From the NCBI GenBank assembly GCA_963854565.1, contig CAWKZT010000002.1:1-35405 (forward strand): DNA of 35,405 bases, given 5' to 3'. The notes under the pieces were generated by a model. It searched no databases, was not told the origin of the DNA, and saw nothing but the letters and a program-made list of their open reading frames with translations. Below, one piece after another: positions 2,065-15,441 of this stretch (its first letter is position 1; every line of letters starts with the position of its first letter). This stretch comes from Acidimicrobiia bacterium. GTDB lineage: Bacteria; Actinomycetota; Acidimicrobiia; Acidimicrobiales; JAHEJN01. The translations under genes were made by a program, and so were the position numbers.

Positions 2065-3254
2065 CCAGTGATGCGGCGGTTGAGTCTTTCGGCGCTGGGT
2101 TTGGCGTTGCGGTCTCGGCCGATGAGGCCGCGTTGGGTGGTGAAGCCGCGGGTGCCTTCGTAGCCGTCGATGCCGGTGTCATAGAAGTAGCCGACTAGAG
2201 GTACGCCGTCATCGACCGCGTTATCGATTTCCCTCAGTGACTGGTTAAGGAGTTCGTCGCGCCAGTCGTCGTCGTTGGTTGTCACACCGTTGCCGGTGAT
2301 GAGGAGTTTCTTGCCGGGTAGTTCGCTGGCGAGGCGTCGACATGCCACGCCGAGTTCTTCGGGCAGGGGAGCGAGGCCGGTGTCGTCTAGGTCGCCTTCG
2401 ACGGGGTAGGGGGTAAATCCGCCGCTGAGGTTGATGCCGAGTGGGTAGGAATAGCTGAAGCCGATGATGTCGTAGATGTCGACGTATTCGTGGGCTTGGC
2501 GCGGGGCGAGTTCGGGGACGACTAGTTCACCGTCGCGGATGGCACCGATCCAAGTGTCCCAGAAGAGGTGTTCCCACCAGCGGGCCTTGGGTCCAGCGCC
2601 GACGCCGACCGGAAAGATTGGGGGTAGGCCGAACGACGAGATTATTGGTGCTCGGCCTGATCCCAATATTGTCGCAGCCAAACGGTCGGCTTCCATGGCA
2701 TCGCCCACGGCGCCAAGTGCTTGTTCGAGGTCTTTGCGGCCGGGTGGGCGTGAGCCAAGCAGGTAGCCGCGGATAGCCCAACCAATGGGGTCGTCGACAC
2801 CGATCCATCCAGCCACGAGGCCGTCGAAGGCTTCGGCGCAGTGATCGACGTGGCGGGTCCACATTTGGTTGCGAGCGTTGTCGTCGCGGAACCCGCCCAT
2901 GTCGATGTGGAACCAACCGGGCAGTGTCTGTGATTGCAGGGTGACGATGGGTTGGAGTCCAACATGGCGCGCCGCGGCTAGGACGTCGCGGTAGCGATTG
3001 AATTCGTCGCGGTCGATCTTGCCTGGCTCTGGTTCGAGCCGAGACCATTCCAACTCGATGTTGATGTGGGTTAGGCCGAGAGCCGCAAGTTGGCCAAGGT
3101 CATCGCGAAATTCGGTGCCGAACCCGCTGCCTTCGTCGGATCGCGGGGCTTTGCCGTCGCGTTCCCACGCCGACCAATCAGCCGAAGGATGTACACCTTC
3201 GGAGCGAAGCGATGAGGAGGTAACGCCCCACCAGAAATTGTCATCGTCAGCCAT
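2061..3254 (-). CDS. Glycoside hydrolase family 1-like protein, apparently catalytically inactive
   Basis: 397-aa ORF with GH1 blocks FWWGVTSSSLRSEG, ELEWSRLEPEPG, GYLLGSRPPG and VPLVGYFY. The NEP acid/base motif reads DDP (res 154-156) and the ITENG nucleophile motif reads ITGNG (res 319-323). Confidence 0.75.
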   Translation of the reverse strand: MADDDNFWWGVTSSSLRSEGVHPSADWSAWERDGKAPRSDEGSGFGTEFRDDLGQLAALGLTHINIELEWSRLEPEPGKIDRDEFNRYRDVLAAARHVGLQPIVTLQSQTLPGWFHIDMGGFRDDNARNQMWTRHVDHCAEAFDGLVAGWIGVDDPIGWAIRGYLLGSRPPGRKDLEQALGAVGDAMEADRLAATILGSGRAPIISSFGLPPIFPVGVGAGPKARWWEHLFWDTWIGAIRDGELVVPELAPRQAHEYVDIYDIIGFSYSYPLGINLSGGFTPYPVEGDLDDTGLAPLPEELGVACRRLASELPGKKLLITGNGVTTNDDDWRDELLNQSLREIDNAVDDGVPLVGYFYDTGIDGYEGTRGFTTQRGLIGRDRNAKPSAERLNRRITG

Positions 3255-3605
3255 GGAACGAGAACGCTACCGATTCGTTAGTCGGTATGTGGAGGAATGT
3301 CAGCTCGGGTGCGGCGGCGAGTAGATAAAGGTGGGAGTCAAGGCGCTCGATTGCTGGAGCGGGCGTCAATGGCCCGATCTCTCAGGGCATGGAACCGCCG
3401 TCGCCCTGGCAGCCGCTTAAAAATCGGTACGCATTTCATGACCTGGTACCGTTATTGGAATTGTGAGCTGTGCTCGGCGAAGCGCTGACGCCGAAGCCTG
3501 GCTATCACGCATCCGCACGCCGATGAATGGACGAAGGGGAGATGTGCAGCTGATTTGCAGAAGATCTCAGACCCACATTCTCGCTAGGCGAGGCAGCAAC
3601 ATCCG

Positions 3606-4112
3606 GTGACGTGGTTTTCTGCACGAAACATCTCGATGTCGACCGTCCCTGTTGGGCCAGACGAGATTTGGCGAATTCTCACCGACCCATCAGCGCTGGC
3701 CGGCTTGACGCCGCTGGTTCGATCGATTGAAGCGACAGGGTCGCAGTGGCGCTGGAAGCTCAACGGGATCGACGGGCTGGGAGTGAGCGTCGAAGCTGTC
3801 TTCACCGAGCGCATGGAGTTCACAGAAAAGCAGCAGATCATTTTCTCGCACGATCCGCCAGAAGGTGAACGCGAGCGCGCTGCGGTGGAGGGAGTCTACG
3901 ACCTGAAGCCGGCTGGCGAGAGCGCCACGGATCTGCAAGTCGACCTTGAACTCTTCGTCGACCTTCCACTGCCCCGTTTGTCGAGATACGCCGTCGAGCC
4001 CCTGATTCTCTCGACGATGCGTTTGACCGGGCAGCGATTTGCATCGAACTTGTACGAATATCTGGGACTTGATCCCTCCACAGCCACCATCACTGAAGTC
4101 AGACCGCCGTGA
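3606..4112 (+). CDS. SRPBCC (START/polyketide cyclase-dehydrase-like) family protein
   Basis: 168-aa ORF whose N-terminus ...VPVGPDEIWRILTDPSALAGLTPLV... is typical of SRPBCC ligand-binding proteins. GTG start at 3606; an alternative ATG lies at 3636. Confidence 0.65.
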   Translation: MTWFSARNISMSTVPVGPDEIWRILTDPSALAGLTPLVRSIEATGSQWRWKLNGIDGLGVSVEAVFTERMEFTEKQQIIFSHDPPEGERERAAVEGVYDLKPAGESATDLQVDLELFVDLPLPRLSRYAVEPLILSTMRLTGQRFASNLYEYLGLDPSTATITEVRPP

Positions 4113-4180
4113 TGGAGCGACTCGCTAGCAAAGCGCCGATCGGACAGCCATCTAACGGGGTGTGGGGTTAGGATTACACG

Positions 4181-4570
4181 GTGAAGAAGCTCTGGATCCA
4201 TCGTGACATCGAGGCCCCAGGAGAAACCCTTTGGGATCTTTTGACCGACCCTGAACAGTGGCCGAGTTGGGGAACCACAGTGCGTAGCGTCGAAATGAAA
4301 GGCGAACGGATCGAACTGGGCTCCACCGGAACCGTTTCATCGGTTGCTGGGCTGGATCTCAACTTCATTGTCACCGAGTTCGACCCTGGCGTGCGCTGGG
4401 CTTGGAAGGTCGCCGGTATACCAGCAACCGATCACACCGTTGAACGCGTCGAGGACGGCCGGTGCAGAGTCGGGTTTGGTGTTCCGTGGGCGGCGGCTCC
4501 GTATCTGAGCTTGTGTCAGTTGGCGTTGCGTCGACTCGATCGAATCGCTACACAGGAAAGGGCCATGTAA
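4181..4570 (+). CDS. SRPBCC family protein (second copy)
   Basis: 129-aa ORF with IEAPGETLWDLLTDPEQWPSWG typical of the SRPBCC/polyketide_cyc2 family. Its stop TAA overlaps the next ATG (TAATG). Confidence 0.65.
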   Translation: MKKLWIHRDIEAPGETLWDLLTDPEQWPSWGTTVRSVEMKGERIELGSTGTVSSVAGLDLNFIVTEFDPGVRWAWKVAGIPATDHTVERVEDGRCRVGFGVPWAAAPYLSLCQLALRRLDRIATQERAM

Positions 4571-6036
4571 TGAAGGTCGCAGTGATCGGCTCGACGGGTT
4601 ACGTCGGGGGCCGTCTGATACCCGAACTGCTCGCAGCTGGACACGATGTCCGCTGTGTCGCCCGTACCCCAGCCCGACTTATTGGGGTCGACTGGTGGTC
4701 CGAAGTTGAAGTCGTAGCCGCCGATGTATTGGACCAAGACTCGCTCGACGGAGCACTCCACGATATTGACGCTATCTACTACCTGGTGCACGCCATGGGG
4801 CACGCCGGCGATTTCGAAGAGGCCGACCGAATAGGCGCAGAAAACACCCGGATCGCGTCGGAAAAGGCAGGAGTTTCAAGGATTGTCTACCTCGGTGGTT
4901 TGGGAGAGGAAGACCCTGACCGACTCTCCAGCCATCTCGCAAGTAGGCACGAGGTCGGCGAGGTACTCGCTTCAGGAGCGGTGCCCGTTACCGAACTCCG
5001 TGCCGCTGTCATTATCGGCTCTGGTAGTGCCTCATTCGAGATGCTCCGCCACCTCGCTGAAGTGCTCCCCGCGATGATCTGCCCGCGCTGGGTGACGGCG
5101 ACCAAATGTCAACCCATCGCGATCACTGATGTCCTTCATTACCTCGTGGCGGTCCTCGACACGCCAGGTACCACGGGGGAGATCTTCGAGATCGGCGGTC
5201 CCGATGTGTTGACCTACCGCGACATGATGGACCGCTACGCGGCACTTGCCGGCCTGCGACGACGACTCATCATCCCCGTACCGCTCTTGACCCCACGACT
5301 CTCATCCCACTGGGTCAATCTCGTCACCCCGCTGCCTTACGGGCTGGCCCGCCCCCTCGTCGATAGCCTGATCAATGATGTTGTCGTTAGCCCTGAACGC
5401 GACATCCGGCGCATGGTCGACCACGCACCCTTGACACTGGACCGAGCTATCGAACGAGCTCTCGCTGTTGTCGGTGATCTCAAGATCAAGACCAGTTGGA
5501 TGGACAGCGCACCCACGAGCACCCCCGCTTCCCCGATGCCGCAGGATCCCGATTGGGCGGGTGGCACGATCTACGAAAACACCCAAGAGGTCAACACGAC
5601 CGCAAGCCCAGCGGCACTGTTTGCAAGTATCTCGGGTGTTGGTGGCGAGCGCGGGTGGTACGCCGCCAATATTTTGTGGACTTTACGTGGCTGGCTCGAC
5701 AAACTCATCGGTGGTGTCGGCATGCGACGTGGTCGTCGACATCCAGACGAGTTGCGTGTCGGTGATGCTCTCGATTTCTTCCGAGTCGAAGCGTACGAAC
5801 CGTCTTCGTTGCTGCGACTGCGGGCCGAAATGAAGGTGCCTGGCGGTGCTTGGGTCGAATGGCGGGTCATCTCCGAAGATGACGGGCAAACCCGGCTGCG
5901 GCAGCTTGCGCGGTTCACACCACGCGGCGTATCAGGCCGGCTGTACTGGTGGGTTCTTCTGCCCATTCATAAGGTGATCTGGAAACAGTTGGCCGAGCGC
6001 CTGGTGGCTAACGCCGAAAAGCCGGGAGCTGACTAG
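4570..6036 (+). CDS. NAD(P)-binding SDR fused to a DUF2867-like C-terminal domain (YbjT-like)
   Basis: The Rossmann start MKVAVIGSTGYVGGRL sits at the ATG at 4570, which overlaps the upstream stop by 1 nt. The C-terminal ~170 aa (GWYAANILWTLRGWLDKLIGGVGMRRGR...) resemble DUF2867. The longer ORF from 4462 overlaps the previous gene and is unlikely. Confidence 0.75.
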   Translation: MKVAVIGSTGYVGGRLIPELLAAGHDVRCVARTPARLIGVDWWSEVEVVAADVLDQDSLDGALHDIDAIYYLVHAMGHAGDFEEADRIGAENTRIASEKAGVSRIVYLGGLGEEDPDRLSSHLASRHEVGEVLASGAVPVTELRAAVIIGSGSASFEMLRHLAEVLPAMICPRWVTATKCQPIAITDVLHYLVAVLDTPGTTGEIFEIGGPDVLTYRDMMDRYAALAGLRRRLIIPVPLLTPRLSSHWVNLVTPLPYGLARPLVDSLINDVVVSPERDIRRMVDHAPLTLDRAIERALAVVGDLKIKTSWMDSAPTSTPASPMPQDPDWAGGTIYENTQEVNTTASPAALFASISGVGGERGWYAANILWTLRGWLDKLIGGVGMRRGRRHPDELRVGDALDFFRVEAYEPSSLLRLRAEMKVPGGAWVEWRVISEDDGQTRLRQLARFTPRGVSGRLYWWVLLPIHKVIWKQLAERLVANAEKPGAD

Positions 6037-6152
6037 CGGGGACTTGCGGAATATGACCTTTGGCCATAACGCCAGTGGAGTCGGTTGATCACCATTTAGT
6101 TATCTCCAGCGCTGAGACGACCGCGACCGTGTCGAAGCTTCCCCTGCTGATC

Positions 6153-6239
6153 ATGGCTGCGGTGATAGGACTTGCTGTGCTCGTGACCTTCTCACTGGCA
6201 GCACATTTGGATGCGTTCGGAACTAGCGTGACGAGATGA
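6153..6239 (+). CDS. Candidate mini membrane ORF (28 aa from the ATG; up to 54 aa from GTG 6075) overlapping the heliorhodopsin start
   Basis: The frame is open from 6057. The translation ...KLPLLIMAAVIGLAVLVTFSLAAHLDAFGTSVTR contains one ~22-residue hydrophobic segment. Its stop TGA (6237-6239) overlaps the heliorhodopsin ATG (6236) as ATGA. No clear SD. It is too short for the ORF track. Confidence 0.3.
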   Translation: MAAVIGLAVLVTFSLAAHLDAFGTSVTR

Positions 6240-6994
6240 ATTTAGAGATCGGTAATCTTCGCAAACTGAACCTGTTCGCCGGTTGCTTGCATCTTGTTTC
6301 TTTCATCGCAATCCTGCTGCTGTCCAATAGCGCGTCGCTTCCGGTGGTGGCGACCTACCTGACCGAGGCCCCCGGTACGGGCAACTTCTCCGATCCGGTG
6401 AACTTGTTCGACTTGAATATCAGCTACATGGTTGCTGGCTTCATGGGGCTTTCGGCGTTCTTTCACTTCTTTGTGATCTCACCGCCGATCTTCCCGAAGT
6501 ATGCCGAGGGTCTGGGCGAGCACATCAACAAGTACCGGTGGATCGAGTACTCGTTGTCGTCTTCGATCATGATTGTCATCATCTTGCAGTTGAACGGGAC
6601 CGCCGATTACATAGCTCTCCTCGCCATCTTCGGTGTGAACGTCTGCATGATCTTGTTCGGTTGGTTGCAGGAGAGGTACACCACGCCCGGCGACGGCGAC
6701 ATGCTCCCGTTCTGGTTTGGTTGCTTCGCTGGAGTGATCCCTTGGATTGCCACGGCCATCAATGTCATCTCGCCCAAGGGCCCGTCAGGGGCCAGCGCCC
6801 CCGGGTTCGTGTACGGGATCGTGATTTCACTCTTCATCCTTTTCAACAGCTTCGCCATTGTCCAGTGGAAGCAATACCGGGCGAAGGGCAAATGGGCCGA
6901 TTATCTCTATGGTGAGCGCCGGTACATCGTGCTTAGCTTCGTGGCAAAGTCGCTGCTTGCTTGGCAGGTCTTCGCGGGAGCGCTGGCCACCTAA
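6236..6994 (+). CDS. Heliorhodopsin (7-TM retinal-binding protein, inverted topology family)
   Basis: The 252-aa ORF is collinear with HeR-48C12 as I recall it. Shared blocks are LSAFFHFFV, RWIEYSLSSSIMIV, LLAIFGVNVCMILFGWLQERY, LPFWFGCFAGVIPW, PGFVYGIVISLFILFNSFAIVQ and GERRYIVLSFVAKSLLAWQVF. The Schiff-base Lys equivalent is K238 (6947-6949), the counter-ion Glu is E104, and the conserved His are H19 and H77. Confidence 0.93.
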   Translation: MNLEIGNLRKLNLFAGCLHLVSFIAILLLSNSASLPVVATYLTEAPGTGNFSDPVNLFDLNISYMVAGFMGLSAFFHFFVISPPIFPKYAEGLGEHINKYRWIEYSLSSSIMIVIILQLNGTADYIALLAIFGVNVCMILFGWLQERYTTPGDGDMLPFWFGCFAGVIPWIATAINVISPKGPSGASAPGFVYGIVISLFILFNSFAIVQWKQYRAKGKWADYLYGERRYIVLSFVAKSLLAWQVFAGALAT

Positions 6995-7037
6995 AACATC
7001 GACCTCCAAGTCGAAGTCCACCAATCGAATTGGGTCT

Positions 7038-7493
7038 CTACTCGCCAGGTATGGGCCCGGGATTTGGTTGCCGGAACAGTCCGTCCGGGATCGGGGCATC
7101 GCAGCGCACCAAGGCGAGTTGCCAGGCCGGTGAAGCACCGAGTGCCCATCGAAGTGCACTCGTCGCATTCTTGCCGATCCCGCCTGCTCGTCTCCCTGGC
7201 TCGACCTCAAGTTGCATGCAGATGTCGGGGGGAATCGTGGTCAGAGCGGCATCGAAAAGTAGTCGGTAGCCGATTTTGACTGGTGGTTTCAGAGGAGGGT
7301 TACGGAGAAAGGAGATGGCGCTTGCCTGTGCTTTGGTGGCGACCCGATCGGGATGATTGGTGATCCAGTCCTTGAGTTCTTGGGCCGTTTCGGGCCGGTT
7401 GGCCCGTGTGAGAAAAGGCCCGTGATCGCCGACACAACGGGATCCCGCAGTTTGCGACCCAACTTGTTCAGGTTTGACACTGTGGTCCCTCAT
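7038..7493 (-). pseudogene. Possible C-terminal fragment of an MpaB/DUF2236-family oxygenase
   Basis: The 151-aa ORF contains PETAQELKDWI...FLRNPPLKPPVKIGYRLLFDAALTTIPPDI, which resembles only the C-terminal third of DUF2236 proteins. Only 98 nt separate it from the upstream gene, so there is no room for the N-terminal catalytic part. No SD precedes the ATG. Confidence 0.3.
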
Positions 7494-7591
7494 GGCAGGC
7501 GATCGTTGCTTGTAAGAAGTGTACGTTCAGGTCGATTCGCATCGTTGTTTGGGGCCACCGGTCCGTTCGTCAGTCGAAGGAGCACAAGGCG

Positions 7592-8149
7592 TCACCATCC
7601 TGAGGTACCGGGTTCACCCTTGAATGGACCGACAACCTCGCCGGTAATCCATCCTCCGTAGAAGCCACCGGCTTGGGGTCGCACTAGTTCGCCATCCACG
7701 CGGCAATGGATCCGGCCCGGATAGAAGGAGATCCACCCGGCGTAGTCAGCGAACTCGGGGTATGGATCGGGGTAGCGCCAGCCCACAGGTTCGGTGGTCC
7801 CCGCTACCGCTACATATTCGGCCGCACCTTTCCATTCGCAGTGCGATGTTCCGTGCACACTCACTAACCGCCCAGCGGGCACCGATTCGGGTGGTAGGTA
7901 GAAGGCAGGCGGATGTGAGGTCTCCAGCACTCGTGCGGATCGGTTCGTTGACGCCACGAGGCCGTGAGCGTCAGAAACTTCGACCGCTCGACTATCGGGC
8001 ACTACTGCGGGCGGTCTTGGGTAGTCCCATACTGACTCCTGGTCGGGGCCCGGGTCTTGAGCGAACGTCGGGCGTTGTTCGCCCCGGTGGGTCCAGCTAT
8101 CGCGCGCATGTTGAAGCCATGCTGGTTCGTTTTTGGTCACGATCTCCAC
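7592..8149 (-). CDS. DUF427 domain-containing protein
   Basis: 185-aa ORF with VWDYPRPP...SHPPAFYLPPE...TSHCEWKGAAEY...ISFYPGR, characteristic of DUF427. It lies 75 nt downstream of the photolyase on the same strand. Confidence 0.8.
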   Translation of the reverse strand: MEIVTKNEPAWLQHARDSWTHRGEQRPTFAQDPGPDQESVWDYPRPPAVVPDSRAVEVSDAHGLVASTNRSARVLETSHPPAFYLPPESVPAGRLVSVHGTSHCEWKGAAEYVAVAGTTEPVGWRYPDPYPEFADYAGWISFYPGRIHCRVDGELVRPQAGGFYGGWITGEVVGPFKGEPGTSGW

Positions 8150-8224
8150 GCTAGGTGGAAATAGTGGGAGGTGGGTGTCACAAACGGGAGCGCTCTGACT
8201 TTGGCTTTCGACCGTCGTATGCGG

Positions 8225-9592
8225 TTAGGTGAGGGCTTGTTTGTAGGTCTGGAGGGCACGGGTTCTGGCGTTGGCATGGTCGACCATCGGCACTGGGTAG
8301 GTGTCTCCTAGAACCACTCCGGCTGTCGCCAGCATGCTGGGATCGGTGCTGTGAGGATGGTGGATGGCTGAAGGGGGAAGGGCGGACAGTTCTGGTACCC
8401 AGCGCCGGACGTAGTCGCCCTGGGGGTCGAATTTCTGCGCCTGAGTGGTGGGGTTGAACACGCGGAAGTAAGGGGCGGCGTCGGGCCCGGTTCCGGCGAC
8501 CCACTGCCAGTTGCCCGCGTTCTGGGCCATATCGGCGTCGACGAGATGATGGCGAAAGAATCGTTCCCCTTGGCGCCAGTCGATGAGCAGATCTTTGACC
8601 AGAAAGCTGGCGCAGATCATCCGTACCCGGTTGTGCATCCACCCGGTCGTGGTCAACTGACGCATCCCGGCGTCGACGATTGGATAGCCAGTCTGACCGG
8701 TGCACCAGCGTTGGAAACCGTCTGGATCGTCGCGCCACGCGATGTTGTCGTATTGCGGCTTGAGAGCCACGTCGGGGAGATCGGGACGCAGGGTGAGGGT
8801 GTGGTTCCACCAGTCTCGCCAGGCCAGTTGGCGAACGAACGCGGCCCGGCCCGGCGTTTGAGTGCCGACGATGTCAACGAGGGTGCGGGCGGCGAGGGTG
8901 CCGAACTTTAGGTCGGCTGAGAGTTCGGAGGTACCGGGCATAGCGGGCAGGTCGCGAGTATCGGGGTAGTCGTCGACGTGATCGAGCCAACTGGTGACCC
9001 GCTCCCACGCTCCGGATTCTCCGGGTGACTGGTAGATCGGTCCTTCGGTGCGGGGGAGCGGTTCGCTCGATATGGCAACGGGTCGGCCTGGACCCGGTGA
9101 CGGCCACGCGGCAAATGGGGCCGCGGTCCAAGCCTTGTAGAAGGGTGTGAAGACCTGGGACAGGGTGCCCTTCTTGGTGAGCACGGCACCGGGTTGATGC
9201 ACTGTGACACCATTGAAGCCATGCGTCGGAATCGTCAGGGCATGGGCTACGGCCTCGTCCCTTTCGACGGAGAAGGGGGTGGCGTCGACGTTGAAGTAGA
9301 CCGCCGAGGCTTCACAGTCTGCGACCAGGGTCGGGACGGCCGATGTTGCGGGGCCACAACGAACAACGAGACCCCCGCCGAGACCTTTCAGTTGCTGGTC
9401 AAGTGCATCGAGATGTGCGAGGAGTTGATCGCGACGGATTTGTCCTGCCGCGTCTATCAGTCTGGGCTCGAGGACGAACAAGGCAATGACCTCGTTATGA
9501 GCCGACGTTGCGGCTGCCCACGCGGGGTTGTCGTCGAGGCGAAGGTCTCGCCGGAACCACACCACGCCCGGTCTTGGATTGGAACCGTCCAC
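8225..9592 (-). CDS. phr: Deoxyribodipyrimidine photo-lyase (class I CPD photolyase type)
   Basis: 455-aa ORF with VWFRRDLRLDDNPAW at the N-terminus and the FAD-binding blocks TGYPIVDAGMRQL, GWMHNRVRMICASFLVKDLLIDWR, DADMAQNAGNWQWVAGTGPDAAPYFRVFNP and KFDPQGDYVRRWVPEL. GTG start; no obvious SD. Confidence 0.92.
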   Translation of the reverse strand: MDGSNPRPGVVWFRRDLRLDDNPAWAAATSAHNEVIALFVLEPRLIDAAGQIRRDQLLAHLDALDQQLKGLGGGLVVRCGPATSAVPTLVADCEASAVYFNVDATPFSVERDEAVAHALTIPTHGFNGVTVHQPGAVLTKKGTLSQVFTPFYKAWTAAPFAAWPSPGPGRPVAISSEPLPRTEGPIYQSPGESGAWERVTSWLDHVDDYPDTRDLPAMPGTSELSADLKFGTLAARTLVDIVGTQTPGRAAFVRQLAWRDWWNHTLTLRPDLPDVALKPQYDNIAWRDDPDGFQRWCTGQTGYPIVDAGMRQLTTTGWMHNRVRMICASFLVKDLLIDWRQGERFFRHHLVDADMAQNAGNWQWVAGTGPDAAPYFRVFNPTTQAQKFDPQGDYVRRWVPELSALPPSAIHHPHSTDPSMLATAGVVLGDTYPVPMVDHANARTRALQTYKQALT

Positions 9593-9866
9593 GGACCCAG
9601 TATGAAGTGCGCACGGACAAATAACGTCTTTGGGCCAGATGTATTTGGATGGGACCGGGATAGAACTTGGCTATGGCCCGTTAGCTCGCTCACATCTGCG
9701 ATCCGAAACCAGCGACTGCGACCCCACCGCGCTCCCGGAAACAAGTCCGGACAGATGCGAGGGGTCATGACCATCATCTACATAGACGAGGGCATGCAGA
9801 TTAAGCGGGCCGAGAATACGTTTCAGCAGAACGATCATGCATCTTTTTGTCCACAGACTTTGGCCG

Positions 9867-9946: not shown

Positions 9947-10582
9947 TTAGGGGAAGAGAATTTCGTAGGAACAGGTGTGCGCCCCGGCGGTCTTGTGGGT
10001 CACCCTGTCGACTTTTGCATCGGGCATGAGGTCGCGAATGAACTCGAGTTCGGTGGTGCACGCCTGTGTGTAGAGGCTGGCAACGGCCCATATGGGGCAA
10101 CTGTGAAGGTTGATCCGATACTGGTTGTGGTCCGGCTTCTCGCAGTCAGCGAGGAACCCCTGTTCATCGAGCAACTTGGTTAGGACGCTGACACGTTGGG
10201 CGGTCGACTTGCCGATCAGTTGGTCTTGCGCTTTCTCGACGAGGCGGAGCCGGCGCCGCTCGAATATTCGGTTCACGAGTTCGGGGTCTTCTTCTTCGAT
10301 GTGTTCGAGGAGTTCGACGGAGAGGCTGCTGTCGGTCGTGACAAAGAGTAGTTCGGCGCGGTCGGTGGTTTGGTAGCGGTCGGCCGGGCGTCCGGGTTGG
10401 CCTCGGTCTTGCGTAGCGGTGATGAGGTCGGCGGATCGCAGGGCCCTCAGGTGTTGGCGAACTGCGCTGGAAGAGATTTCGAGGGTGTCGGCGAGTTCTT
10501 CAGCCGTTGCGCTGCCACTGCGTTTTAGTGCAGTGAGCACCCGGCGCTGGGTCGGTGAAGGTGCAGCACTGGTGGTGAGCAT
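9947..10582 (-). CDS. sufR: SufR-like ArsR/DeoR-type winged-helix regulator with a C-terminal Cys cluster
   Basis: The start is chosen at MLTTSAAPSPTQRRVLTALKRSGSATAEELADTL...AVRQHLRAL (wHTH). The C-terminus carries C-x14-C-x12-C...C (CEKPD..HSCPIW..QACTT..HTCSY). It is divergent from a suf operon. The longer ORF to 10699 would swallow the promoter region. Confidence 0.7.
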   Translation of the reverse strand: MLTTSAAPSPTQRRVLTALKRSGSATAEELADTLEISSSAVRQHLRALRSADLITATQDRGQPGRPADRYQTTDRAELLFVTTDSSLSVELLEHIEEEDPELVNRIFERRRLRLVEKAQDQLIGKSTAQRVSVLTKLLDEQGFLADCEKPDHNQYRINLHSCPIWAVASLYTQACTTELEFIRDLMPDAKVDRVTHKTAGAHTCSYEILFP

Positions 10583-10603
10583 TTGTCGATCGTAGCATGT
10601 CCA

Positions 10604-10663
10604 GATAGTTCGATAGTTTCGCAACTTGGAACTACCAAAACGGTGGTATATTAAACGCCACCG
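10604..10663 (+). promoter_or_regulatory. Candidate suf promoter/operator region
   Basis: There is a direct repeat GATAGTTcGATAGTT (10604-10618). A -35-like TTGGAA (10626-10631) and a -10-like TATATT (10647-10652) are present. The -10 sits in the loop of the inverted repeat CGGTGG-N11-CCACCG (10641-10663). Confidence 0.3.
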
Positions 10664-10717
10664 AAGCACCAATAATGCAAGACCACAGGCTGTGACCACA
10701 GCAGGGAGAAGATCACC

Positions 10718-10984
10718 ATGAAAGTCTGGATCGACCAGGATCTCTGCACCGGAGATGGCCTGTGTGAAGAGATCGCCCCCGATGTGTTCTTCGGAAGGGA
10801 CGACGGGCTCTTCTACGTGAAGGAGTCTGAGGAAAACTTTGGGGAAGAGAAACTGTTCGATGGCACAGCCAACCCGGCGGCCGCCGATGGAATGGCTCGG
10901 ATACCTGACGGTGGCCTAGAAGGGGTCATCGAGGCGGCAGAGGAATGCCCCGGCGAGTGCATCTTCATCGAAGTCGACGCGTAA
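10718..10984 (+). CDS. Small ferredoxin (single-cluster, C-x2-D-x2-C ... CP type)
   Basis: 88-aa ORF with MKVWIDQDLCTGDGLCEEIAPDVF and C-terminal ECPGECIFIE. SD GGGAGAAG lies upstream. Confidence 0.8.
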   Translation: MKVWIDQDLCTGDGLCEEIAPDVFFGRDDGLFYVKESEENFGEEKLFDGTANPAAADGMARIPDGGLEGVIEAAEECPGECIFIEVDA

Positions 10985-11066
10985 TCACGAGTCCAGACCC
11001 CAACGCTGCGGGCATGTCGCAGCGAACCAATCACACCCGTACTGAAGCCAACGAAAGACAAGAGCG

Positions 11067-11417
11067 ATGACAACGACCGAACTGGAAACGCAACCGCCGA
11101 TCGCGCTGAGCGCCGAGGCAATAGCCAAGGTGACTGAGCTCTTGGCCGACGAGGGCGAACCAGATCTCGGGCTTCGGGTGGCAGTGCGCCCGGGTGGATG
11201 TTCGGGTTTCTCCTATGAGATGTTCTTCGATTCCGCTGAGAGCGCTGATGATCACGTCGCCAACTTCGGGCCGGTCACGGTCCGAGTCGACGCAGCCAGC
11301 GCGCCGCACCTTGCCGGCGCAACGCTGAACTACAGCGACGGCCTCCAGGGCGCCGGATTCAGCGTCGAGAACCCCAACGCCCAACGCAGTTGTGGATGCG
11401 GGCAGTCGTTCAGCTGA
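11067..11417 (+). CDS. sufA: HesB/IscA-family A-type Fe-S carrier
   Basis: 116-aa ORF with [11 protein letters not shown] and the C-terminal CGCGQSFS signature. Its stop overlaps the sufB ATG by 1 nt. Confidence 0.85.
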
Positions 11418-12859
11418 TGAGTGAAGCACTTCGTGAAATTAAAGAACTGACCGATGCGGCCTACGAGTACGGCTTCAGCACCGATCTTGACACCGATATT
11501 GCTCCCCCCGGTCTGACCGAGGACACAGTACGGCTGATCTCCGGGAAGAAAGACGAGCCCGAGTGGCTACTCGAGTGGCGCCTCAAGGCCTTCAAGGCCT
11601 GGCAATCGATGGATGAGCCCGATTGGGCCAAGCTCGAGATTCAACCCATCGACTACCAGTCGCTCAGCTACTGGGCCGCGCCGACGAGCAAGCCGGTGCT
11701 TGACAGCATGGACGACGTGGATCCCGATATTCGCGACATGTTCGACAAGCTCGGGATTCCCTTGCACGAACAGAAGATGCTCAGCAACGTCGCAGTCGAT
11801 GCGATCGTTGATTCAGTTTCAGTAACCACGACCTTCAAGAAGACGTTGGCCGAGGCCGGCGTCATCTTCTGCTCGTTCTCCGAAGCGGTGCAGGATCATC
11901 CTGAACTGGTGCGCGAGCACCTGGGCTCGGTCGTGCCGGTGCGCGACAACTACTTCGCGGCCCTTAACTCCGCAGTCTTCTCCGACGGATCGTTTTGCTA
12001 CATCCCAGCTGGGGTTCGATGTCCGATGGAGTTGTCGACCTACTTCCGGATCAACGCCGAGAACACCGGGCAGTTCGAGCGCACGCTCATCATTGCGGAG
12101 GAAGATTCCCACGTCTCCTACCTCGAGGGGTGCACGGCGCCTCAACGCGACGAGAACCAGCTCCATGCCGCTGTGGTCGAGTTGGTGGCCAAGGATCGAT
12201 CCGAGATCAAGTACTCGACGGTACAGAACTGGTACCCGGGCGACGAGAACGGCGTAGGTGGCATCTATAACTTCGTCACCAAGCGAGGTCGGGCCCACAC
12301 CGAGGCCAAGATCTCCTGGACCCAGGTCGAGACCGGTTCGGCCATCACATGGAAATACCCCAGCGTGATCCTCCAAGGCGATCGATCTATCGGCGAGTTT
12401 TACTCTGTGGCACTGTCGACAAAACGTCAGCAAGCCGACACCGGCACCAAGATGATCCACATCGGTGCCGACACAACCAGCAGCATCATCTCGAAAGGCA
12501 TCTCGGCGGCGCGCGGCCAGAACACCTACCGAGGACTCGTCAAGGTGCTGCGATCGGCGGAGAATGCCCGCAACTACACCCAGTGCGACTCCTTGCTTAT
12601 CGGCAAAGAGTGTGGTGCTCACACGATTCCCTACATCGAAGTGAAGAACCCAAGCGCCCAAGTCGAACACGAAGCGTCGACGTCCACGGTGGGCGAGGAC
12701 CAACTGTATTACTGCCGCCAACGCGGCATGACCGAAGAGGATGCCATGTCGATGATCGTTAACGGATTTTGCCGCGAAGTGTTCGACGAACTCCCCATGG
12801 AGTTCGCCGTCGAAGCGCAACGACTCCTGAGTGTGAGCCTGGAAGGAAGTGTCGGCTGA
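11417..12859 (+). CDS. sufB: Fe-S cluster assembly protein SufB
   Basis: 480 aa from the ATG at 11417. It shows typical SufB blocks ([64 protein letters not shown]...RG). Start and stop are coupled to the neighbours by TGATG. Confidence 0.95.
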
Positions 12860-13644
12860 TGTTGCACGTCAACAATCTCACCGCCTCAATCGGCGGAACA
12901 CCGATCCTCAACGGACTGGACCTCAATGTCGGGTCGGGCGAGGTTCACGCCATCATGGGCCCCAACGGTTCGGGTAAGAGCACCTTTGCCCACGCATTAG
13001 CTGGCCGAGACGGCTACGAGATCGCCGGAACGGCCACCCTTGACGGGGTCAATCTGCTTGACATGGAGCCTGAAGCGCGCGCCGCGGCTGGCTTATTTAT
13101 CGGTTTTCAGTACCCGGTGGAGATCCCGGGTGTGAACAACATGTACTTCTTGCGCACCGCGTTGAACTCGGTGCGACGGGCCCGCGGCGAGACCGAGATT
13201 GGTGCGCGCGACTTCTTGTCCGTTGCCCAAGAAGCGATGGATCTCGTGGAGATGAAGCAGGACTTCCTCCATCGTGCCGTCAATGCCGGGTTTAGTGGCG
13301 GTGAGAAGAAGCGCAACGAGATACTGCAGATGGCGGTGATGGAACCGCGCCTGGCCGTGCTCGATGAGACCGACTCGGGTCTCGATATCGATGCCCTGCG
13401 CATCGTTGCTTCTGGGGTCAACGCACTGCGAGGGCCCGAGCGCTCCATGATCGTGATCACGCACTACCAGCGACTGCTCAACTACATCAAGCCGGACTTC
13501 GTGCACGTTTTGGTCGATGGCCAGATCGTCAAGTCGGGTGATCATACGCTTGCATTACATCTCGAAGACCATGGGTACGCCGACTTCGTCAACCACGATC
13601 TAGATGATGCCCCCGAGCGTCCCCTCTCCGGAGCGGTGCGGTGA
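12859..13644 (+). CDS. sufC: Fe-S cluster assembly ATPase SufC
   Basis: Walker A GPNGSGKST, ABC signature FSGGEKKR and Walker B LAVLDETDSGLD. The ATG at 12859 overlaps the sufB stop. Confidence 0.95.
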   Translation: MLHVNNLTASIGGTPILNGLDLNVGSGEVHAIMGPNGSGKSTFAHALAGRDGYEIAGTATLDGVNLLDMEPEARAAAGLFIGFQYPVEIPGVNNMYFLRTALNSVRRARGETEIGARDFLSVAQEAMDLVEMKQDFLHRAVNAGFSGGEKKRNEILQMAVMEPRLAVLDETDSGLDIDALRIVASGVNALRGPERSMIVITHYQRLLNYIKPDFVHVLVDGQIVKSGDHTLALHLEDHGYADFVNHDLDDAPERPLSGAVR

Positions 13645-14864
13645 CCGCAACCTCAACGGCGGATCATCAAGAAATTATTGCGGGGCTCACGTACCCAACC
13701 AAGCGCGACGAAGCGTGGCGGTATGCGCCCCACGATGTGCTCGGCCAGTTGTCGTTCGGCCCTTCGGTCGAGTCGATTCGTCAGCTTCCTCTGGCTCTCG
13801 ATGCGAACATCCCGGCACTCGACGGACCGCGCATCGTTTTGGTGAACGGCGTTGTCGACCTTGGGCGATCAGAGCTTGACGCTCTGCCAGCTGGTTTGCG
13901 TCTGTCGACCTTCGACGACGCACGGCGCGACCAACCCGAAAAGCTGGCGGTGCACTTCGAAAACGACGCGGATCTGGCCACGAATACATTCACGGCCATC
14001 AACAAGGCGTTCGGCCACAACGGCGCCGTTGTCCAGGTCGCCAGCAGCCATGCCATTGAGGTACCGATCCAAATTGTCGACATAGCGCTGTCTGACGTGC
14101 CAGCAACAGCGTCATGTAGCGGCTTGATAATCCACCTCGAAGAGGGAGCGTCGGCAACCGTTGTCGAGACGAGAATCGGACACGGCGACTTCGGCGGCTC
14201 GAACACCCGCACAACGATCACGCTTGGCGACCAGGCGTCGCTCACTCACATCGTGCTTCAGGACGTCGCATCCACACAGGTTCATCTGGGGCGCATCGAG
14301 GCCACGCAAGGCGCCGGGAGCGTGCTGCGCTCCCACTTGTTCAACCTCGGTGGCAGGTACGGCCGGGTCGACTACGACGTGCGCCTCGCCGGCGAAGGCG
14401 CAAGGGTTGAACTGACGGGCTTGTACTTCGGTATGGGCAACCAGGTCCTCGATCAGCAGGTCACCGTCGTGCATGCGGCACCGGACTGTACAAGTCGTCA
14501 ATCGTTCCGTGGCATCCTCGACGATGAGAGCACTGGCGTGTTCAATGGCGGGATCGACGTGCGCCCTGGAGCTGATGGCACCGATGCCGAGCAGTCCAAC
14601 GACAACCTTTTGCTGTCGGACCGTTCCGAGGCCAACACCCAACCTCGGCTCGAGATTCTCGCCGACGAGGTCGTCTGTAAACACGGCGCAACCGTCGGCC
14701 AGCTAGACGGCGATGCCCTCTACTATCTGCGCACCCGCGGCATTCCCGAGGCCGAGGCTCGCCGACTCCTAATCGGAGGATTTGCCGACCAAGCCGTCGA
14801 CGCCGTCGACGACGAGATCCTGAGGATCTGGATCACTGAACGACTGCAGCGCCACGATGCCTGA
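13641..14864 (+). CDS. sufD: Fe-S cluster assembly protein SufD
   Basis: The 407-aa ORF has a C-terminal half with the SufB/D beta-helix blocks (NLLLSD.SEANT.P.LEI.ADEV.C.HGATVG..D...LYYL..RGI). The GTG start overlaps the sufC stop (GTGA). Confidence 0.9.
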   Translation: MTATSTADHQEIIAGLTYPTKRDEAWRYAPHDVLGQLSFGPSVESIRQLPLALDANIPALDGPRIVLVNGVVDLGRSELDALPAGLRLSTFDDARRDQPEKLAVHFENDADLATNTFTAINKAFGHNGAVVQVASSHAIEVPIQIVDIALSDVPATASCSGLIIHLEEGASATVVETRIGHGDFGGSNTRTTITLGDQASLTHIVLQDVASTQVHLGRIEATQGAGSVLRSHLFNLGGRYGRVDYDVRLAGEGARVELTGLYFGMGNQVLDQQVTVVHAAPDCTSRQSFRGILDDESTGVFNGGIDVRPGADGTDAEQSNDNLLLSDRSEANTQPRLEILADEVVCKHGATVGQLDGDALYYLRTRGIPEAEARRLLIGGFADQAVDAVDDEILRIWITERLQRHDA

Positions 14865-15441
14865 ACAACGCGAAATGCGCGAACAACCGGTAGATATCGC
14901 CTCGACGCGAGCGTTCTTCCTCCCCCGTGAATGCGAGGTAACAATCGTTCCCGCCGGACACCGGGTCACCCTCGCCGAAGGCGAACGCGTCAAGGTGCTC
15001 CAGGCCCTCGGCGGAACCGCTACTGTCACCACCAGCAATGGCGAGATGGCGCGACTTAGCCCGCAGGACTCGATCGACTTCGGCTTCATACGGGAACGCA
15101 CTCCACGCGAAGTTGAAGAGGGATTGACGTTCGACATCGCCTTGGTGTGGGAAGCCGCCACCACGGTTTATGACCCTGAGATACCTGTCGACATCGTTGA
15201 ACTGGGCCTCATCTACCGGGTTGAGGCTGATGAGTTGCCCAACGGTGAATGGGTGGTGGATATCGACATGTCGGTCACCGCACCGTTCTGTGGCATGGGC
15301 GACATATTGCGCCAAGACCTCCACGATGCCGTAGCGGCATTGCCTGGAGTGTCGGCGGTCAACGTCACCCTGGTCTTTGACCCTCCGTGGGACGCATCGC
15401 GCCTTTCCGATGTCGCCCGCCTCGAAATGGGAATGATGTGA
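14857..15441 (+). CDS. sufT: SufT-like Fe-S assembly protein (N-terminal extension plus DUF59 domain)
   Basis: 194-aa ORF with a DUF59 core: VYDPEIPVDIVELGLIY...MSVTAPFCGMG...V.LVFDPPW. It overlaps the sufD stop by 8 nt. Confidence 0.75.
   Translation: MPEQREMREQPVDIASTRAFFLPRECEVTIVPAGHRVTLAEGERVKVLQALGGTATVTTSNGEMARLSPQDSIDFGFIRERTPREVEEGLTFDIALVWEAATTVYDPEIPVDIVELGLIYRVEADELPNGEWVVDIDMSVTAPFCGMGDILRQDLHDAVAALPGVSAVNVTLVFDPPWDASRLSDVARLEMGMM

Follow-up and report, generated by a model that had tools for sequence, protein, structure and literature searches.

The segment at 3.6-9.7 kb of the window, i.e., the whole 35,405-nucleotide stretch of DNA analysed here, can best be understood as a lineage-specific, modular light/UV accessory cluster of marine and freshwater Acidimicrobiia, a reading to which we assign a probability of about 55%. 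The source is a marine actinobacterium, and light-related genes surround its heliorhodopsin (HeR) gene in shuffled order. Sequence comparison shows that the nearest relatives have the same cluster backbone, in which a photolyase and a divergent SRPBCC/SDR pair are combined with a DUF2236 (MpaB-type) oxygenase gene and a convergent SRPBCC-SRPBCC-SDR_DUF2867 unit. Judged from the gene neighbourhoods of relatives, DUF427, rather than photolyase or the suf genes, is the steadiest and tightest neighbour of HeR. This stronger link, which the first-pass annotation had missed, is a new lead.

Gene content and rearrangements of the cluster

Pfam and NCBIfam profiles confirmed the positions that had been given for HeR on the plus strand, for DUF427 and photolyase on the minus strand and for the SufR-like and suf genes (Table 1). 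HeR matches the NCBIfam HeR equivalog with 313 bits (cut-off 100) and keeps the counter-ion glutamate (E104) and the Schiff-base lysine (K238). A TAGCGT box (6224-6229) is located 6 nt 5' of its ATG and likewise in most related HeR loci, which suggests that HeR has its own leaderless-type promoter. The photolyase, which had been called class I, does belong to the photolyase family; however, the strict class I assignment does not hold, since its best solved relative is the class III enzyme PhrA of A. tumefaciens (4U63, 325 bits), followed by the E. coli class I enzyme (1DNP, 298 bits), and its score against the NCBIfam class I equivalog, 363 bits, is below the cut-off of 506. Class II enzymes match with an E value of only about 1e-5. 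Six nucleotides 5' of the photolyase GTG lies a CATACT box (9604-9599), and a TANNNT box is found 6-7 nt upstream of the start codon of both HeR and photolyase; an operator or promoter motif common to the HeR, photolyase and SRPBCC promoters was looked for and not found.

Table 1. Coordinates of the cluster genes and the adjacent suf locus in the window
Feature	Position	Strand	Basis or remark
SRPBCC protein 1 (Polyketide_cyc2-like), first gene of SRPBCC-SRPBCC-SDR_DUF2867	3606-4112	+	weak PF10604
SRPBCC protein 2 (Polyketide_cyc2)	4181-4570	+	PF10604, E 5e-12
NAD(P)-binding SDR fused to DUF2867, 488 aa (public gene calls)	4570-6036	+	PF13460 and PF11066
Segment with HeR gene, 991 bp	6034-7024		absent from L082, the closest syntenic relative (blastn)
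Heliorhodopsin (HeR), 48C12-like clade	6236-6994	+	PF18761, E 3.4e-92
Terminator-like hairpin and T-run, downstream of DUF2236 remnant	7001-7018	-	consensus match only
DUF2236/MpaB-family oxygenase gene remnant	7038-7493	-	homologue alignment; tblastn/blastn against L082
DUF427 protein, ~182-185 aa, beta-tent fold	7592-8149	-	PF04248
CPD photolyase, class I/III-like	8225-9592	-	PF00875 and PF03441
Conserved photolyase promoter region	9593-9713		alignment with L080, L081, L082, L333
SufR-like ArsR-HTH gene	9947-10582	-	full-length TIGR02702 SufR match, 95 bits, below cut-off 178.8
Ferredoxin	10718-10984	+	
SufA/ErpA-like gene	11067-11417	+	
sufB, sufC, sufD, then SufT-like gene	end 15441	+	adjacent locus 9947-15441, outside the module

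HeR had been described as lying tail-to-tail with a photolyase-DUF427 operon. The genes are indeed convergent, but HeR and DUF427 are not directly adjacent, as an overlooked ORF, the DUF2236 remnant, is located between them. A photolyase-DUF427 operon is plausible from the sequence, with a gap of ~75-85 bp that contains no terminator-like site, and should be regarded as putative. DUF2236 homologues of at least 247 aa all carry PF09995 and align only to residues 37-151 of the overlooked ORF. In the comparison with L082 (tblastn, blastn), residues 1-28 correspond to window positions 7480-7397 and residues 191-306 to positions 7394-7047; the remnant has kept the gene's 5' end together with the final ~116 codons, and the in-frame deletion removes ~487 bp of the core.

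In L082, a spacer of 38 bp (9094-9131) between the convergent SDR_DUF2867 and DUF2236 genes corresponds to window positions 7024-6034 (blastn). The flanks of the HeR segment, 6034-6212 and 6995-7024, match no other compared locus, and the segment was probably inserted in the window lineage, not lost from L082. Furthermore, L082 has non-homologous 788 bp where the window carries the DUF427 segment (7499-8219; blastn). Within the 354-bp interval between photolyase and sufR lies what is left of a divergent SRPBCC gene on the plus strand, a decayed start that reads ATG-GCC-CGT-TAG (ATG 9673-9675, stop TAG 9682-9684). Since this gene is intact (MARYVV...) in L080, L081, L082 and L333, the photolyase/sufR junction appears to be a deletion scar.

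We propose that HeR entered the short stretch separating SDR_DUF2867 from DUF2236 by insertion, as a self-contained gene that brought its own leaderless-type promoter, and that the DUF427 gene took the place of the segment between photolyase and DUF2236. DUF2236 would have undergone its internal deletion in the window lineage, and loss of the divergent SRPBCC/SDR pair would have brought the unrelated sufR-suf locus beside the photolyase. These rearrangements are deduced from comparison with L082, L048 and L001, and their direction was assigned by parsimony, with two or three relatives as reference. The decay of DUF2236 and of one SRPBCC gene shows that the cluster is not under uniform selection. 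Orthologues of SRPBCC protein 1 (64-90% identical) occupy the same position in L048, L082 and L326-L345, and SRPBCC protein 2 is found directly 5' of SDR_DUF2867 in 20 of 38 metagenome loci. L048 and L081, which derive from one MAG, have the backbone as in the window with HeR on the other side.

Contigs from six samples carry the identical arrangement of window genes, and contigs from four marine DNA runs span it without joints; the arrangement is fixed in a natural population. The lone RNA evidence is a metatranscriptome contig of 179 nt, which covers the 3' end of SDR_DUF2867.

Gene neighbourhoods across relatives

Neighbourhood statistics for phr, DUF427 and suf genes, which the first-pass annotation had put forward as a check, gave a divided picture. 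Of the 19 species whose photolyase is most similar to that of the window, five have HeR within 10 kb of it (expected, at most 0.1), so that the occurrence of HeR near this photolyase lineage exceeds chance by this count; DUF2236 is near photolyase in 6 of the 19 loci. Viewed from HeR, however, a photolyase-family gene lies within 10 kb at only 4 of 159 loci, which is close to chance, and class I/III photolyases occur at 0/79 and 1/80 HeR loci of two sampled clades. A further 61 more distant photolyase loci have a housekeeping context (ScpA, ScpB, AroA-Cmk, prephenate-dehydrogenase-like) without light genes, as judged from the sequences of recurrent families.

The association with DUF427 is likewise above chance in these comparisons. 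DUF427 orthologues with 73-82% identity adjoin HeR in L088, L166, L333, L366, L368, L373 and L001. L368 and L373 share the order SRPBCC-SDR-HeR-DUF427 with a HeR-DUF427 gap of 8 bp in both, and the DUF427/HeR pairs of L001, L002 and L166 are divergent. In a context-unbiased set of 11 DUF427-centred loci, which show 69-81% identity to the query protein or 67-79% in tblastn matches, HeR is present at four, two of them with the 8-bp gap; fewer than 0.1 would be expected, since the flanks total at most ~0.18 Mb in an assumed 2.5-Mb genome. The HeRs of the cluster loci fall into four clades with at most 61% identity between them, and the DUF427 proteins are 73-82% identical. Three of these clades adjoin DUF427, and the fourth lies within ~3 kb of it in one locus.

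Five separate lineages (the window, L332/L333, L088, L166 and L001) combine HeR, a photolyase-family gene and the DUF427 orthogroup within 10 kb, in differing gene orders and with HeRs of several clades. L333 has the co-directional cluster PHR-SRPBCC-SRPBCC-SDR_DUF2867-DUF2236-HeR-Kef-DUF427-CIA30 with gaps of 15-89 bp and one overlapping pair, and in L088 two HeRs are located between DUF427-CIA30 and two photolyase-family genes. The inclusion of DUF427 in a light module, as suggested before, is justified by this recurrence. The idea of a light-sensor-plus-repair module holds in part: a functional relation to light is a fair reading, because the three families recur in five lineages in varied order, but the count of 4/159 does not favour a specific HeR-photolyase pair as a rule.

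The recurrent families comprise HeR, class I/III or FeS-type photolyase, DUF427, CIA30, SDR_DUF2867, SRPBCC, DUF2236, DUF2071 and classical SDR. By these neighbourhoods, SDR_DUF2867 is the family that connects photolyase, HeR and DUF427 across loci; it lies within 10 kb at 7/80 photolyase, 8/159 HeR and 5/80 DUF427 loci. L246 and L247 show SRPBCC-SDR_DUF2867-HeR with gaps of 51-69 bp and a HeR of a different clade. The link of HeR to the upstream SRPBCC/SDR-DUF2867 genes had also gone unnoticed.

Alternatively, HeR, DUF427 and photolyase could be chance neighbours in a rearrangement-prone region, assembled by neutral insertion and deletion with no functional link. This would fit the several scars (the internally deleted DUF2236, the decayed SRPBCC start and the replaced segments), the HeR-Kef-DUF427 genes of L366, which sit among transposase and toxin-antitoxin genes, and the gene order, which differs in every locus mapped. 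Moreover, most HeR loci of both sampled clades are without cluster genes, and the cluster occurs in only part of the Acidimicrobiia. Chance is nevertheless rather unlikely: a small set of families reassembles with several HeR clades, with Poisson P values of 1e-4 to 1e-9 for several family pairs (loci taken as independent, genome sizes assumed, and the close relatives L088/L126, L332/L333 and L368/L373 included). The 8-bp gaps in two loci and the fixation of the arrangement across several marine samples also argue against it.

In the preferred reading of an accessory cluster, the genes would serve one light-exposed physiology and would probably be expressed under the same conditions, their families reassembling in varying orders with HeRs from four clades. 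By analogy with other HeRs, the protein may sense light without pumping and modulate a soluble partner. The linkage points to the DUF427 beta-tent protein and/or the SDR_DUF2867 enzyme as the likeliest candidates; stimulation of the photolyase would be a weaker possibility.

The adjacent suf locus

The juxtaposition with a full suf operon had been put forward as a possible extension of the light module. The operon is not full, as neither SufS nor SufU/SufE was detected among the window ORFs of at least 150 aa scanned against Pfam. A light sensor tied to Fe-S repair, with HeR and photolyase coupled to sufR-suf, e.g., for control of light or oxidative damage, would draw on the adjacency in the window genome and on L251, an unrelated HeR locus with a SufR-like gene 8 kb from HeR. 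However, the counts for SufR or SufB are 0/80 within 10 kb of related photolyase genes, 0/79 near HeR loci and 0/80 near DUF427 loci, and SufC matches near these loci are generic ABC ATPases with 23-57% identity. The deletion scar at the photolyase/sufR junction and the missing sufS and sufU also count against the coupling, as does the photolyase type, since class I/III enzymes are not known to carry an Fe-S cluster. The coupling is highly improbable and is already contradicted by the comparative data.

Comparison with known systems

We know of no DUF427 family member with a known function, and of no partner or function assigned to HeR 48C12. Among solved HeRs the latter, from a freshwater actinobacterial fosmid (PDB 6SU3, 6UH3), comes closest to the window HeR (E 7e-91 over the full length), which keeps its key residues. 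The AlphaFold2 model of the window DUF427 protein (mean pLDDT 90.8) has its best fold match in 3DJM, followed by Yippee/Mis18, the RIG-I CTD and cereblon CULT, in line with the beta-tent fold (Lupas et al. 2015, PMC4287342). Its core superposes on 3DJM with a TM score of 0.82-0.85 relative to the target, but the window protein exceeds it in length by ~70 residues and has a conserved extension at the N terminus and a tail at the C terminus.

In the Firmicutes species Trichococcus flocculiformis, TfHeR is encoded in one operon with a class II photolyase, TfPHR, and DUF2238 (Shim et al. 2022, PMC9769723), and binding with about 3-fold stimulation was reported. By analogy, light-activated HeR could bind the window photolyase and boost repair or broaden its action spectrum, with DUF427 as an accessory. 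In both systems a HeR gene is close to a CPD photolyase gene, the retinal lysine and counter-ion glutamate are kept, and a HeR that aids a soluble light-dependent enzyme would suit both. The HeR genes near 5 of the 19 closest photolyase relatives and the compact L333 and L088 loci are consistent with such a pair, and photolyase is one of the ten groups into which frequent HeR operon neighbours were sorted by Cho et al. (2024, PMC11109279). However, the window photolyase of an acidimicrobial host is class I/III-like, convergent with HeR, separated from it by two genes and preceded by its own promoter box. TfHeR and the window HeR share 43% identity, and the photolyase-binding residues E97/R162/K227 of TfHeR (PMC9769723) are P87/G152/A216 in the window. 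Besides the near-chance count at HeR-centred loci, L001 and L002 (the closest HeR relatives) and the HeR-DUF427 operons of L368, L373 and L366 are without a class I/III photolyase in their 6-10 kb flanks. Direct coupling is possible in the window, though without any hallmark of the published pair, and we consider a helper role of this kind distinctly unlikely.

The photolyase-group rows of PMC11109279 that were compared are Trichococcus operons with class II enzymes. DUF427 was found neither in the supplement of that study nor in the main text of Bulzu et al. (2021, PMC8612252); DUF2236 and CIA30 are outside the ten groups of PMC11109279, and DUF2867 occurs once in the supplement of the latter, in an Anaerolineales operon. 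Both analyses, as described, took in only tightly spaced genes on one strand, so that convergent genes as in the window would go uncounted. Glutaredoxin beside HeR, reported in the main text of PMC8612252, was also found in our HeR-centred sample. AbHeR binds and regulates the glutamine synthetase encoded beside it (Cho et al. 2022, PMC9529153, as cited in PMC11109279), which corresponds to the general mode proposed here, a HeR regulating a neighbour-encoded soluble enzyme; the window, however, has no glutamine synthetase gene near HeR. In 'Ca. Actinomarinales', a type-1 rhodopsin (MACR) adjoins photolyase in variable positions and orientations (PMC7771536). MACR differs in being a proton pump, and HeR lies elsewhere in those genomes, between nuo operons; nevertheless, rhodopsin and photolyase are neighbours in marine Actinomycetota there as in the window, which supports the clustering of light-related genes.

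Gene content and state of the locus

The gene order of the window between 3.6 and 15.4 kb was established from an ORF listing and profile searches (see table). The heliorhodopsin (HeR), photolyase and DUF427 genes have the coordinates and orientations given in the first-pass annotation, which overlooked the 151-codon ORF between HeR and DUF427. All homologs of this ORF with at least 247 amino acids carry PF09995 (DUF2236, 'oxygenase MpaB family'), and only its residues 37 to 151 align with them. Compared with the intact gene of L082, the closest syntenic relative, the first ~28 and the last ~116 codons are retained and a core of ~487 bp is deleted in frame. Judged by these alignments, the ORF is a remnant of a DUF2236 gene; its reading as a 5'-truncated gene was rejected, since tblastn and blastn searches revealed the in-frame internal deletion.

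Features of the window locus
Feature	Position	Strand	Basis or remark
PAS-EAL gene (c-di-GMP phosphodiesterase)	17-589		window begins inside the gene
MoxR-like AAA+ ATPase	646-2064		after the PAS-EAL gene
SRPBCC protein 1	3606-4112	+	ORF listing/profile search
SRPBCC protein 2	4181-4570	+	ORF listing/profile search
SDR_DUF2867 (NAD(P)-binding SDR fused to DUF2867)	4570-6036	+	ORF listing/profile search
HeR	6236-6994	+	PF18761, NF038020
DUF2236 remnant, 151 codons	7038-7493	-	PF09995-bearing homologs
DUF427	7592-8149	-	PF04248
Photolyase	8225-9592	-	PF00875 + PF03441
SufR-like ArsR-HTH regulator	9947-10582	-	ORF listing/profile search
Ferredoxin	10718-10984	+	downstream of the SufR-like gene
SufA/ErpA-like, SufB, SufC, SufD, SufT-like, in this order		+	after the ferredoxin gene

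The same arrangement is present on contigs of six samples, and contigs from four DNA runs cover positions 3000-9560 without a joint, which indicates that it is fixed in a natural population; in the contigs of these runs, the HeR and DUF427 segments showed no polymorphism within the population. The nearest relatives of the window HeR come from Acidimicrobiales and Ilumatobacteraceae MAGs, and the window DNA is matched in marine and seawater metagenomes; the source organism belongs to the Acidimicrobiia (Actinomycetota) and is marine. Across the ferredoxin gene, contig depth rises about twofold, and contigs from each of the four DNA runs and from an RNA run connect position 10766 to 10946, thereby skipping ~150-179 bases; these are most likely contigs of other organisms sharing the conserved ends of the window ferredoxin. 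Several unrelated loci also have EAL genes at most 10 kb from HeR or DUF427, and GGDEF/EAL genes near HeRs were noted by Bulzu et al. (PMC8612252).

The HeR matches PF18761 over its full length (308.6 bits, cut-off 26.7) as well as the NF038020 equivalog (313.4 bits, cut-off 100). In the alignment to 48C12, the Schiff-base lysine K238 (VAKS) corresponds to K241 in helix 7 and the counter-ion glutamate E104 (WIEYS) to E107 in helix 3; the predicted protein is a 48C12-like HeR. Genes for retinal synthesis (crt, blh) are absent from the window ORFs scanned against Pfam. The photolyase domains of the neighboring enzyme are clear (PF00875, E 2e-41; PF03441, E 2.5e-87), but the earlier assignment to class I has to be widened. 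Among PDB structures, the class III enzyme PhrA of A. tumefaciens ranks first with 325 bits (4U63), and the class I photolyase from E. coli follows with 298 bits (1DNP); against PRK10674, the NCBIfam class I equivalog, the score of 363 bits stays under the cut-off (506). Scores of DASH and class II enzymes are clearly lower, with E-values of ~1e-5 to 2e-5 for class II structures versus 1e-88 to 1e-96 for class I/III. Based on scores and PDB matches, 'class I/III-like' would be the safe label.

In actinobacteria, a -10-type box close to the start codon marks a gene's own promoter in leaderless transcripts. Most related Acidimicrobiia loci (L001-L072) have a TANNNT box 6-7 nt before the HeR start, which reads TAGCGT in the window (6224-6229), and the photolyase is preceded by the box CATACT (9599-9604), located 6 nt before the GTG and conserved in relatives. 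Leaderless mRNAs with separate promoters are thus predicted for the two genes. No operator shared by the HeR and photolyase promoters was found, only the generic leaderless -10 boxes being robust. A sigma-70 scan gave 0 sites, and CATACTGG, considered as a shared motif, has one occurrence in the window, which is chance level. A 16-nt repeat of both promoters (6205-6220 and 9643-9658, 81% identical) was dropped, as it is unconserved in relatives. The gap of ~75-85 bp between photolyase and DUF427 has no terminator-like site, and a hairpin followed by a T-run is located after the DUF2236 remnant; co-transcription of photolyase and DUF427 is plausible. The RNA matching the region, one 179-nt contig in three marine metatranscriptome runs, is too thin for a reading of co-expression or operon structure.

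Linkage of HeR, photolyase and DUF427 in related loci

Window proteins and then further recurrent families were mapped by tblastn in five samples: 79 species whose HeR shares 59-87% identity with the window HeR (sample a), the 80 species with the most similar photolyase (sample b), 80 DUF427-centred loci from many phyla (sample c), 80 HeR-centred loci from a further set of clades (sample d) and 38 usable metagenome contigs around SDR_DUF2867 (sample e). The resulting statistics are rough, since loci were counted as independent. Seen from the photolyase, a HeR is located within 10 kb in 5/80 loci of sample b (L080, L088, L090, L091 and L126), all of which belong to the 19 loci with a photolyase of at least 60% identity, where 0.1 or fewer would be expected (P ~1e-7). 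The remaining 61 loci have a housekeeping context, read from family sequences (ScpA, ScpB, AroA-Cmk, prephenate-dehydrogenase-like). Seen from the HeR, no class I/III photolyase is encoded within 10 kb in sample a (0/79 loci), and one is found near 1/80 HeRs in sample d, in which SDR_DUF2867 is found near five and DUF2236 near four HeRs. A Pfam check identified an unassigned ORF of L001, the locus with the closest HeR, as an FeS-type (6-4)-like photolyase (PF04244, DPRP). Together, photolyase-family genes of class I/III or DPRP type are near HeR in 4/159 HeR-centred loci, a count that rests on queries of these two types, which class II photolyases could escape, and that lies near the ~0.75-0.95 loci expected at random in each sample (P 0.53 and 0.07). 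Adjacency of HeR and photolyase is thus real in part of the Acidimicrobiia, as 5 of the 19 photolyase-centred loci show, but not general, given the 4/159 HeR-centred ones. The HeR of L090 (14963-15838) and the DUF427 of L001 (4933-5426) each read as two overlapping frames, which reflect either frameshifted pseudogenes or assembly errors. In eight freshwater loci (L026, L038, L040, L041, L043, L047, L050 and L051), a GH1 glycosidase gene directly precedes HeR in the same orientation, 35-81 bp away, and a GH1 match upstream of HeR occurs in ~14 loci; the GH1 gene of the window (2061-3254, 34-39% identical) is located ~3 kb upstream of HeR on the opposite strand.

DUF427 is paired with HeR in the window and in L001, L002, L088, L166, L332/L333, L366, L368 and L373. 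The frequency of this pairing was taken from eleven DUF427 loci, L166 and L167 from a genome scan and nine proteins selected by the length of their contigs, all chosen without regard to gene context (69-81% identity for the query protein, or 67-79% for the tblastn match). HeR adjoins DUF427 in four of them; by our own arithmetic, fewer than 0.1 would be expected for a total flank of at most ~0.18 Mb. The two genes form a divergent pair in L166, follow the order HeR-Kef-DUF427 in L366 (Kef, Kef-type antiporter) and the order SRPBCC-SDR-HeR-DUF427 in L368 and L373, where HeR and DUF427 are separated by 8 bp. The HeRs of the clustered loci fall into four clades and are at most ~61% identical to each other, while their DUF427 proteins are 73-82% identical; one DUF427 orthogroup stands beside HeRs of three clades, and a HeR of the fourth (L088b) lies ~3 kb from DUF427 in L088.

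In sample b, by contrast, DUF427 adjoins the photolyase only in L143 and is 4.4 kb away in L088 (n = 80), and the window and L143 are the only loci with DUF427 directly downstream of a class I/III photolyase. A conserved photolyase-DUF427 operon is thus not borne out among 80 photolyase- and 80 DUF427-centred loci. Sample c has a HeR near DUF427 in 1/80 loci, SDR_DUF2867 in 5/80, a class I/III photolyase in 2/80 and an FeS-type photolyase in 4/80; a photolyase-family gene is present in 5/80 (P 0.003), a weak cross-phylum association. In the Desulfuromusa MAG locus L195 (632-2666), a DPRP photolyase follows DUF427 after 32 bp, and in three betaproteobacterial loci the two lie within 1-5 kb, hinting that linkage of DUF427 to the photolyase family reaches beyond Actinomycetota. 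The earlier inclusion of DUF427 in the proposed module is therefore justified by its company with HeR (4/11 loci), not with the photolyase, and gene context suggests that DUF427 is the better-supported HeR partner of the two. A CIA30 protein (PF08547) is encoded directly after DUF427 in L088 (3183-3698), L166 (5943-6464) and L333 (12237-12755) and ~1 kb downstream of HeR in L323 (11809-12318); the window DUF427 has no CIA30 partner.

A modular cluster and the origin of the window arrangement

Around the close photolyase relatives, a limited set of families recurs: a divergent pair of SRPBCC and classical SDR genes, SRPBCC-SRPBCC-SDR_DUF2867, DUF2236, DUF2071, DUF1365, FeS-type photolyase, HeR, DUF427, CIA30 and a Kef-type antiporter. 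Their order differs in every locus. In L333, which was mapped by tblastn, as shadow ORFs can mask DUF2236 and DUF427 in ORF listings, reverse SDR and SRPBCC genes on the left side are divergent from the photolyase (PHR), which begins the forward series PHR-SRPBCC-SRPBCC-SDR_DUF2867-DUF2236-HeR-Kef-DUF427-CIA30; these nine genes are co-directional with gaps of 15-89 bp and one overlapping pair. L088 contains forward Kef-DUF427-CIA30, two reverse HeR genes and forward PHR-DPRP. L166 carries DPRP and, farther on, forward SRPBCC-SRPBCC-SDR_DUF2867, a reverse HeR and forward DUF427-CIA30. In L001, with 87% HeR identity, a reverse DUF427 precedes forward HeR and DUF2071, followed at a distance by DUF2236 and DPRP, both in reverse. 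HeR, a photolyase-family gene and DUF427 are found within 10 kb in five lineages, the window included. In Acidimicrobiia from the sea and from freshwater, HeR is part of a modular light-gene cluster, the composition of which can now be listed.

The Kef-type antiporter (Na_H_Exchanger and TrkA_N) directly follows HeR or DUF2236 in L333 (9919-11517), L080 (17519-19258) and L366 (6321-7871); it is located between HeR and DUF427 in L333 and L366 and is absent from the window. It may be another HeR-regulated membrane protein. HipA, a PhdYeFM antitoxin, Gp49 and rve_3 transposases flank the cluster in L082 (3180-4424) and L366 (4270-4527, 8956-10305 and 10601-10948), which is consistent with a flexible genomic region. 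The names of ten records (L024, L029, L054, L082, L086, L159, L166, L239, L243 and L318) are at odds with the genes they carry: Bifidobacterium breve, Chthoniobacterales and Verrucomicrobiales are among the names deposited for contigs with Acidimicrobiia-type genes, and L239 and L243 are titled Klebsiella pneumoniae and Bordetella parapertussis. These MAGs appear to be mis-binned or mislabelled.

Window and L082 DNA are ~82-84% identical over the shared genes and collinear for the photolyase with its promoter, both ends of DUF2236, SDR_DUF2867 and both SRPBCC genes. The HeR-bearing segment of the window (6034-7024) is a 38-bp spacer in L082, located between convergent SDR_DUF2867 and DUF2236 genes, and the DUF427-bearing segment (7499-8219) corresponds to 788 non-homologous bp without a Pfam domain. 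The same backbone occurs in L048 and L081, contigs of a single MAG, where DUF2236 is intact and a HeR of 75% identity lies on the opposite side of the SRPBCC genes. We infer, with the direction given by parsimony, that HeR and DUF427 joined an older photolyase cluster in the window lineage. At the DNA level, both genes are nearest to those of L001 (72-83% identical), where DUF427 and HeR form a divergent pair; this would be compatible with their joint arrival.

Upstream of the photolyase, the conserved promoter region is followed by the first codons of the divergent SRPBCC gene, which now read ATG-GCC-CGT-TAG; homology to relatives stops after them, and sufR comes next. The decayed SRPBCC start and the end of homology before sufR mark the photolyase/sufR junction as a deletion scar. 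The first-pass annotation had described a full suf operon and drawn it into the module. SufB, SufC, SufD and the SufA-like and SufT-like proteins are present; SufS (Aminotran_5) and SufU/SufE are absent from the window ORFs scanned against Pfam, and the operon is not full. Neither SufR nor SufB is found near the photolyase in any of 80 loci, SufC matches being generic ABC ATPases; suf genes are near 0/80 DUF427 genes and near HeR in 0/79 loci of sample a and 1/80 of sample d, where a SufR-like gene lies 8 kb away in L251. These counts and the scar refute suf as part of the module; its adjacency is, on this comparison, peculiar to the window lineage, and the link can be dropped.

DUF427 as candidate partner and comparison with known HeR pairs

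The window DUF427 protein matches PF04248 with 83.5 bits (cut-off 22.1). Its model (pLDDT 90.8) is similar to 3DJM in Foldseek (E 9e-8) and confidently predicts the beta-tent fold of that structure; the resemblance to Yippee/Mis18, RIG-I CTD and cereblon CULT modules is remote (for the fold, see PMC4287342). C103, E104, W105, K106 and C148 are among its invariant residues. The 120 best homologs are all single-domain proteins, and no domain fusions were found among them. We know of no function for any DUF427 protein. In the literature searched, no paper joins DUF427 and photolyase, and DUF427 appears neither in the supplement of the HeR neighbor classification (PMC11109279) nor in the text by Bulzu et al. 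(PMC8612252).

The cluster may be retained because its products are all active on exposure to sunlight and UV, and its genes are probably co-regulated. HeR would sense green light and modulate a soluble partner; judged by linkage, DUF427 and/or SDR_DUF2867 would most likely be this partner, with the photolyase as a weaker candidate. More specifically, the ~182-amino-acid DUF427 protein could be the dedicated cytoplasmic HeR partner or transducer of Acidimicrobiia, relaying light to SDR-DUF2867, photolyases and the Kef-type antiporter, a tentative proposal with a probability of roughly 0.3. If true, this would account for the company of a single conserved DUF427 with HeRs of several divergent clades. 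DUF427 is the steadiest HeR neighbor in Acidimicrobiia, twice at a distance of 8 bp, and it was unfound in the published neighbor classifications searched. The HeR-DUF427 link is the part worth pursuing, as a concrete and cheap candidate that could give DUF427 its first function.

To our knowledge, few HeR partners have been described (a class II photolyase, glutamine synthetase and an ABC transporter), each in a single organism. The two pairs named in the first-pass annotation are correct: in Trichococcus flocculiformis, TfHeR binds to a photolyase and stimulates it (PMC9769723), and regulation of glutamine synthetase by another HeR is cited in PMC11109279. TfPHR is a class II enzyme encoded in the same operon as TfHeR, together with DUF2238, and residues E97, R162 and K227 in the cytoplasmic loops of TfHeR are required for photolyase binding (PMC9769723). 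In contrast, the HeR and photolyase genes of the window converge, the DUF2236 remnant and DUF427 separate them, and the photolyase is class I/III-like. In an alignment with the TfHeR sequence from the supplement of PMC11109279, the three residues correspond to P87, G152 and A216 of the window HeR, with R215 and K217 flanking A216. As the defining features of the TfHeR-TfPHR pair are missing from the window, the claim of a pair of this type is lowered; the repair module proposed for HeR and photolyase is possible, but lacks the marks of that pair, the one precedent that has been characterized, and is unconserved from the HeR side. It is possible that the window HeR aids a class I/III photolyase via other contacts. 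In 'Ca. Actinomarinales', a type-1 proton-pumping rhodopsin adjoins a photolyase in varying positions (PMC7771536), a pattern that a HeR-specific mechanism would fit less well than a grouping of light-related genes. HeR near photolyase is an arrangement already published, and its presence in the window is no discovery in itself; the window is a variant of this known arrangement, and the HeR-DUF427 link is its new part.
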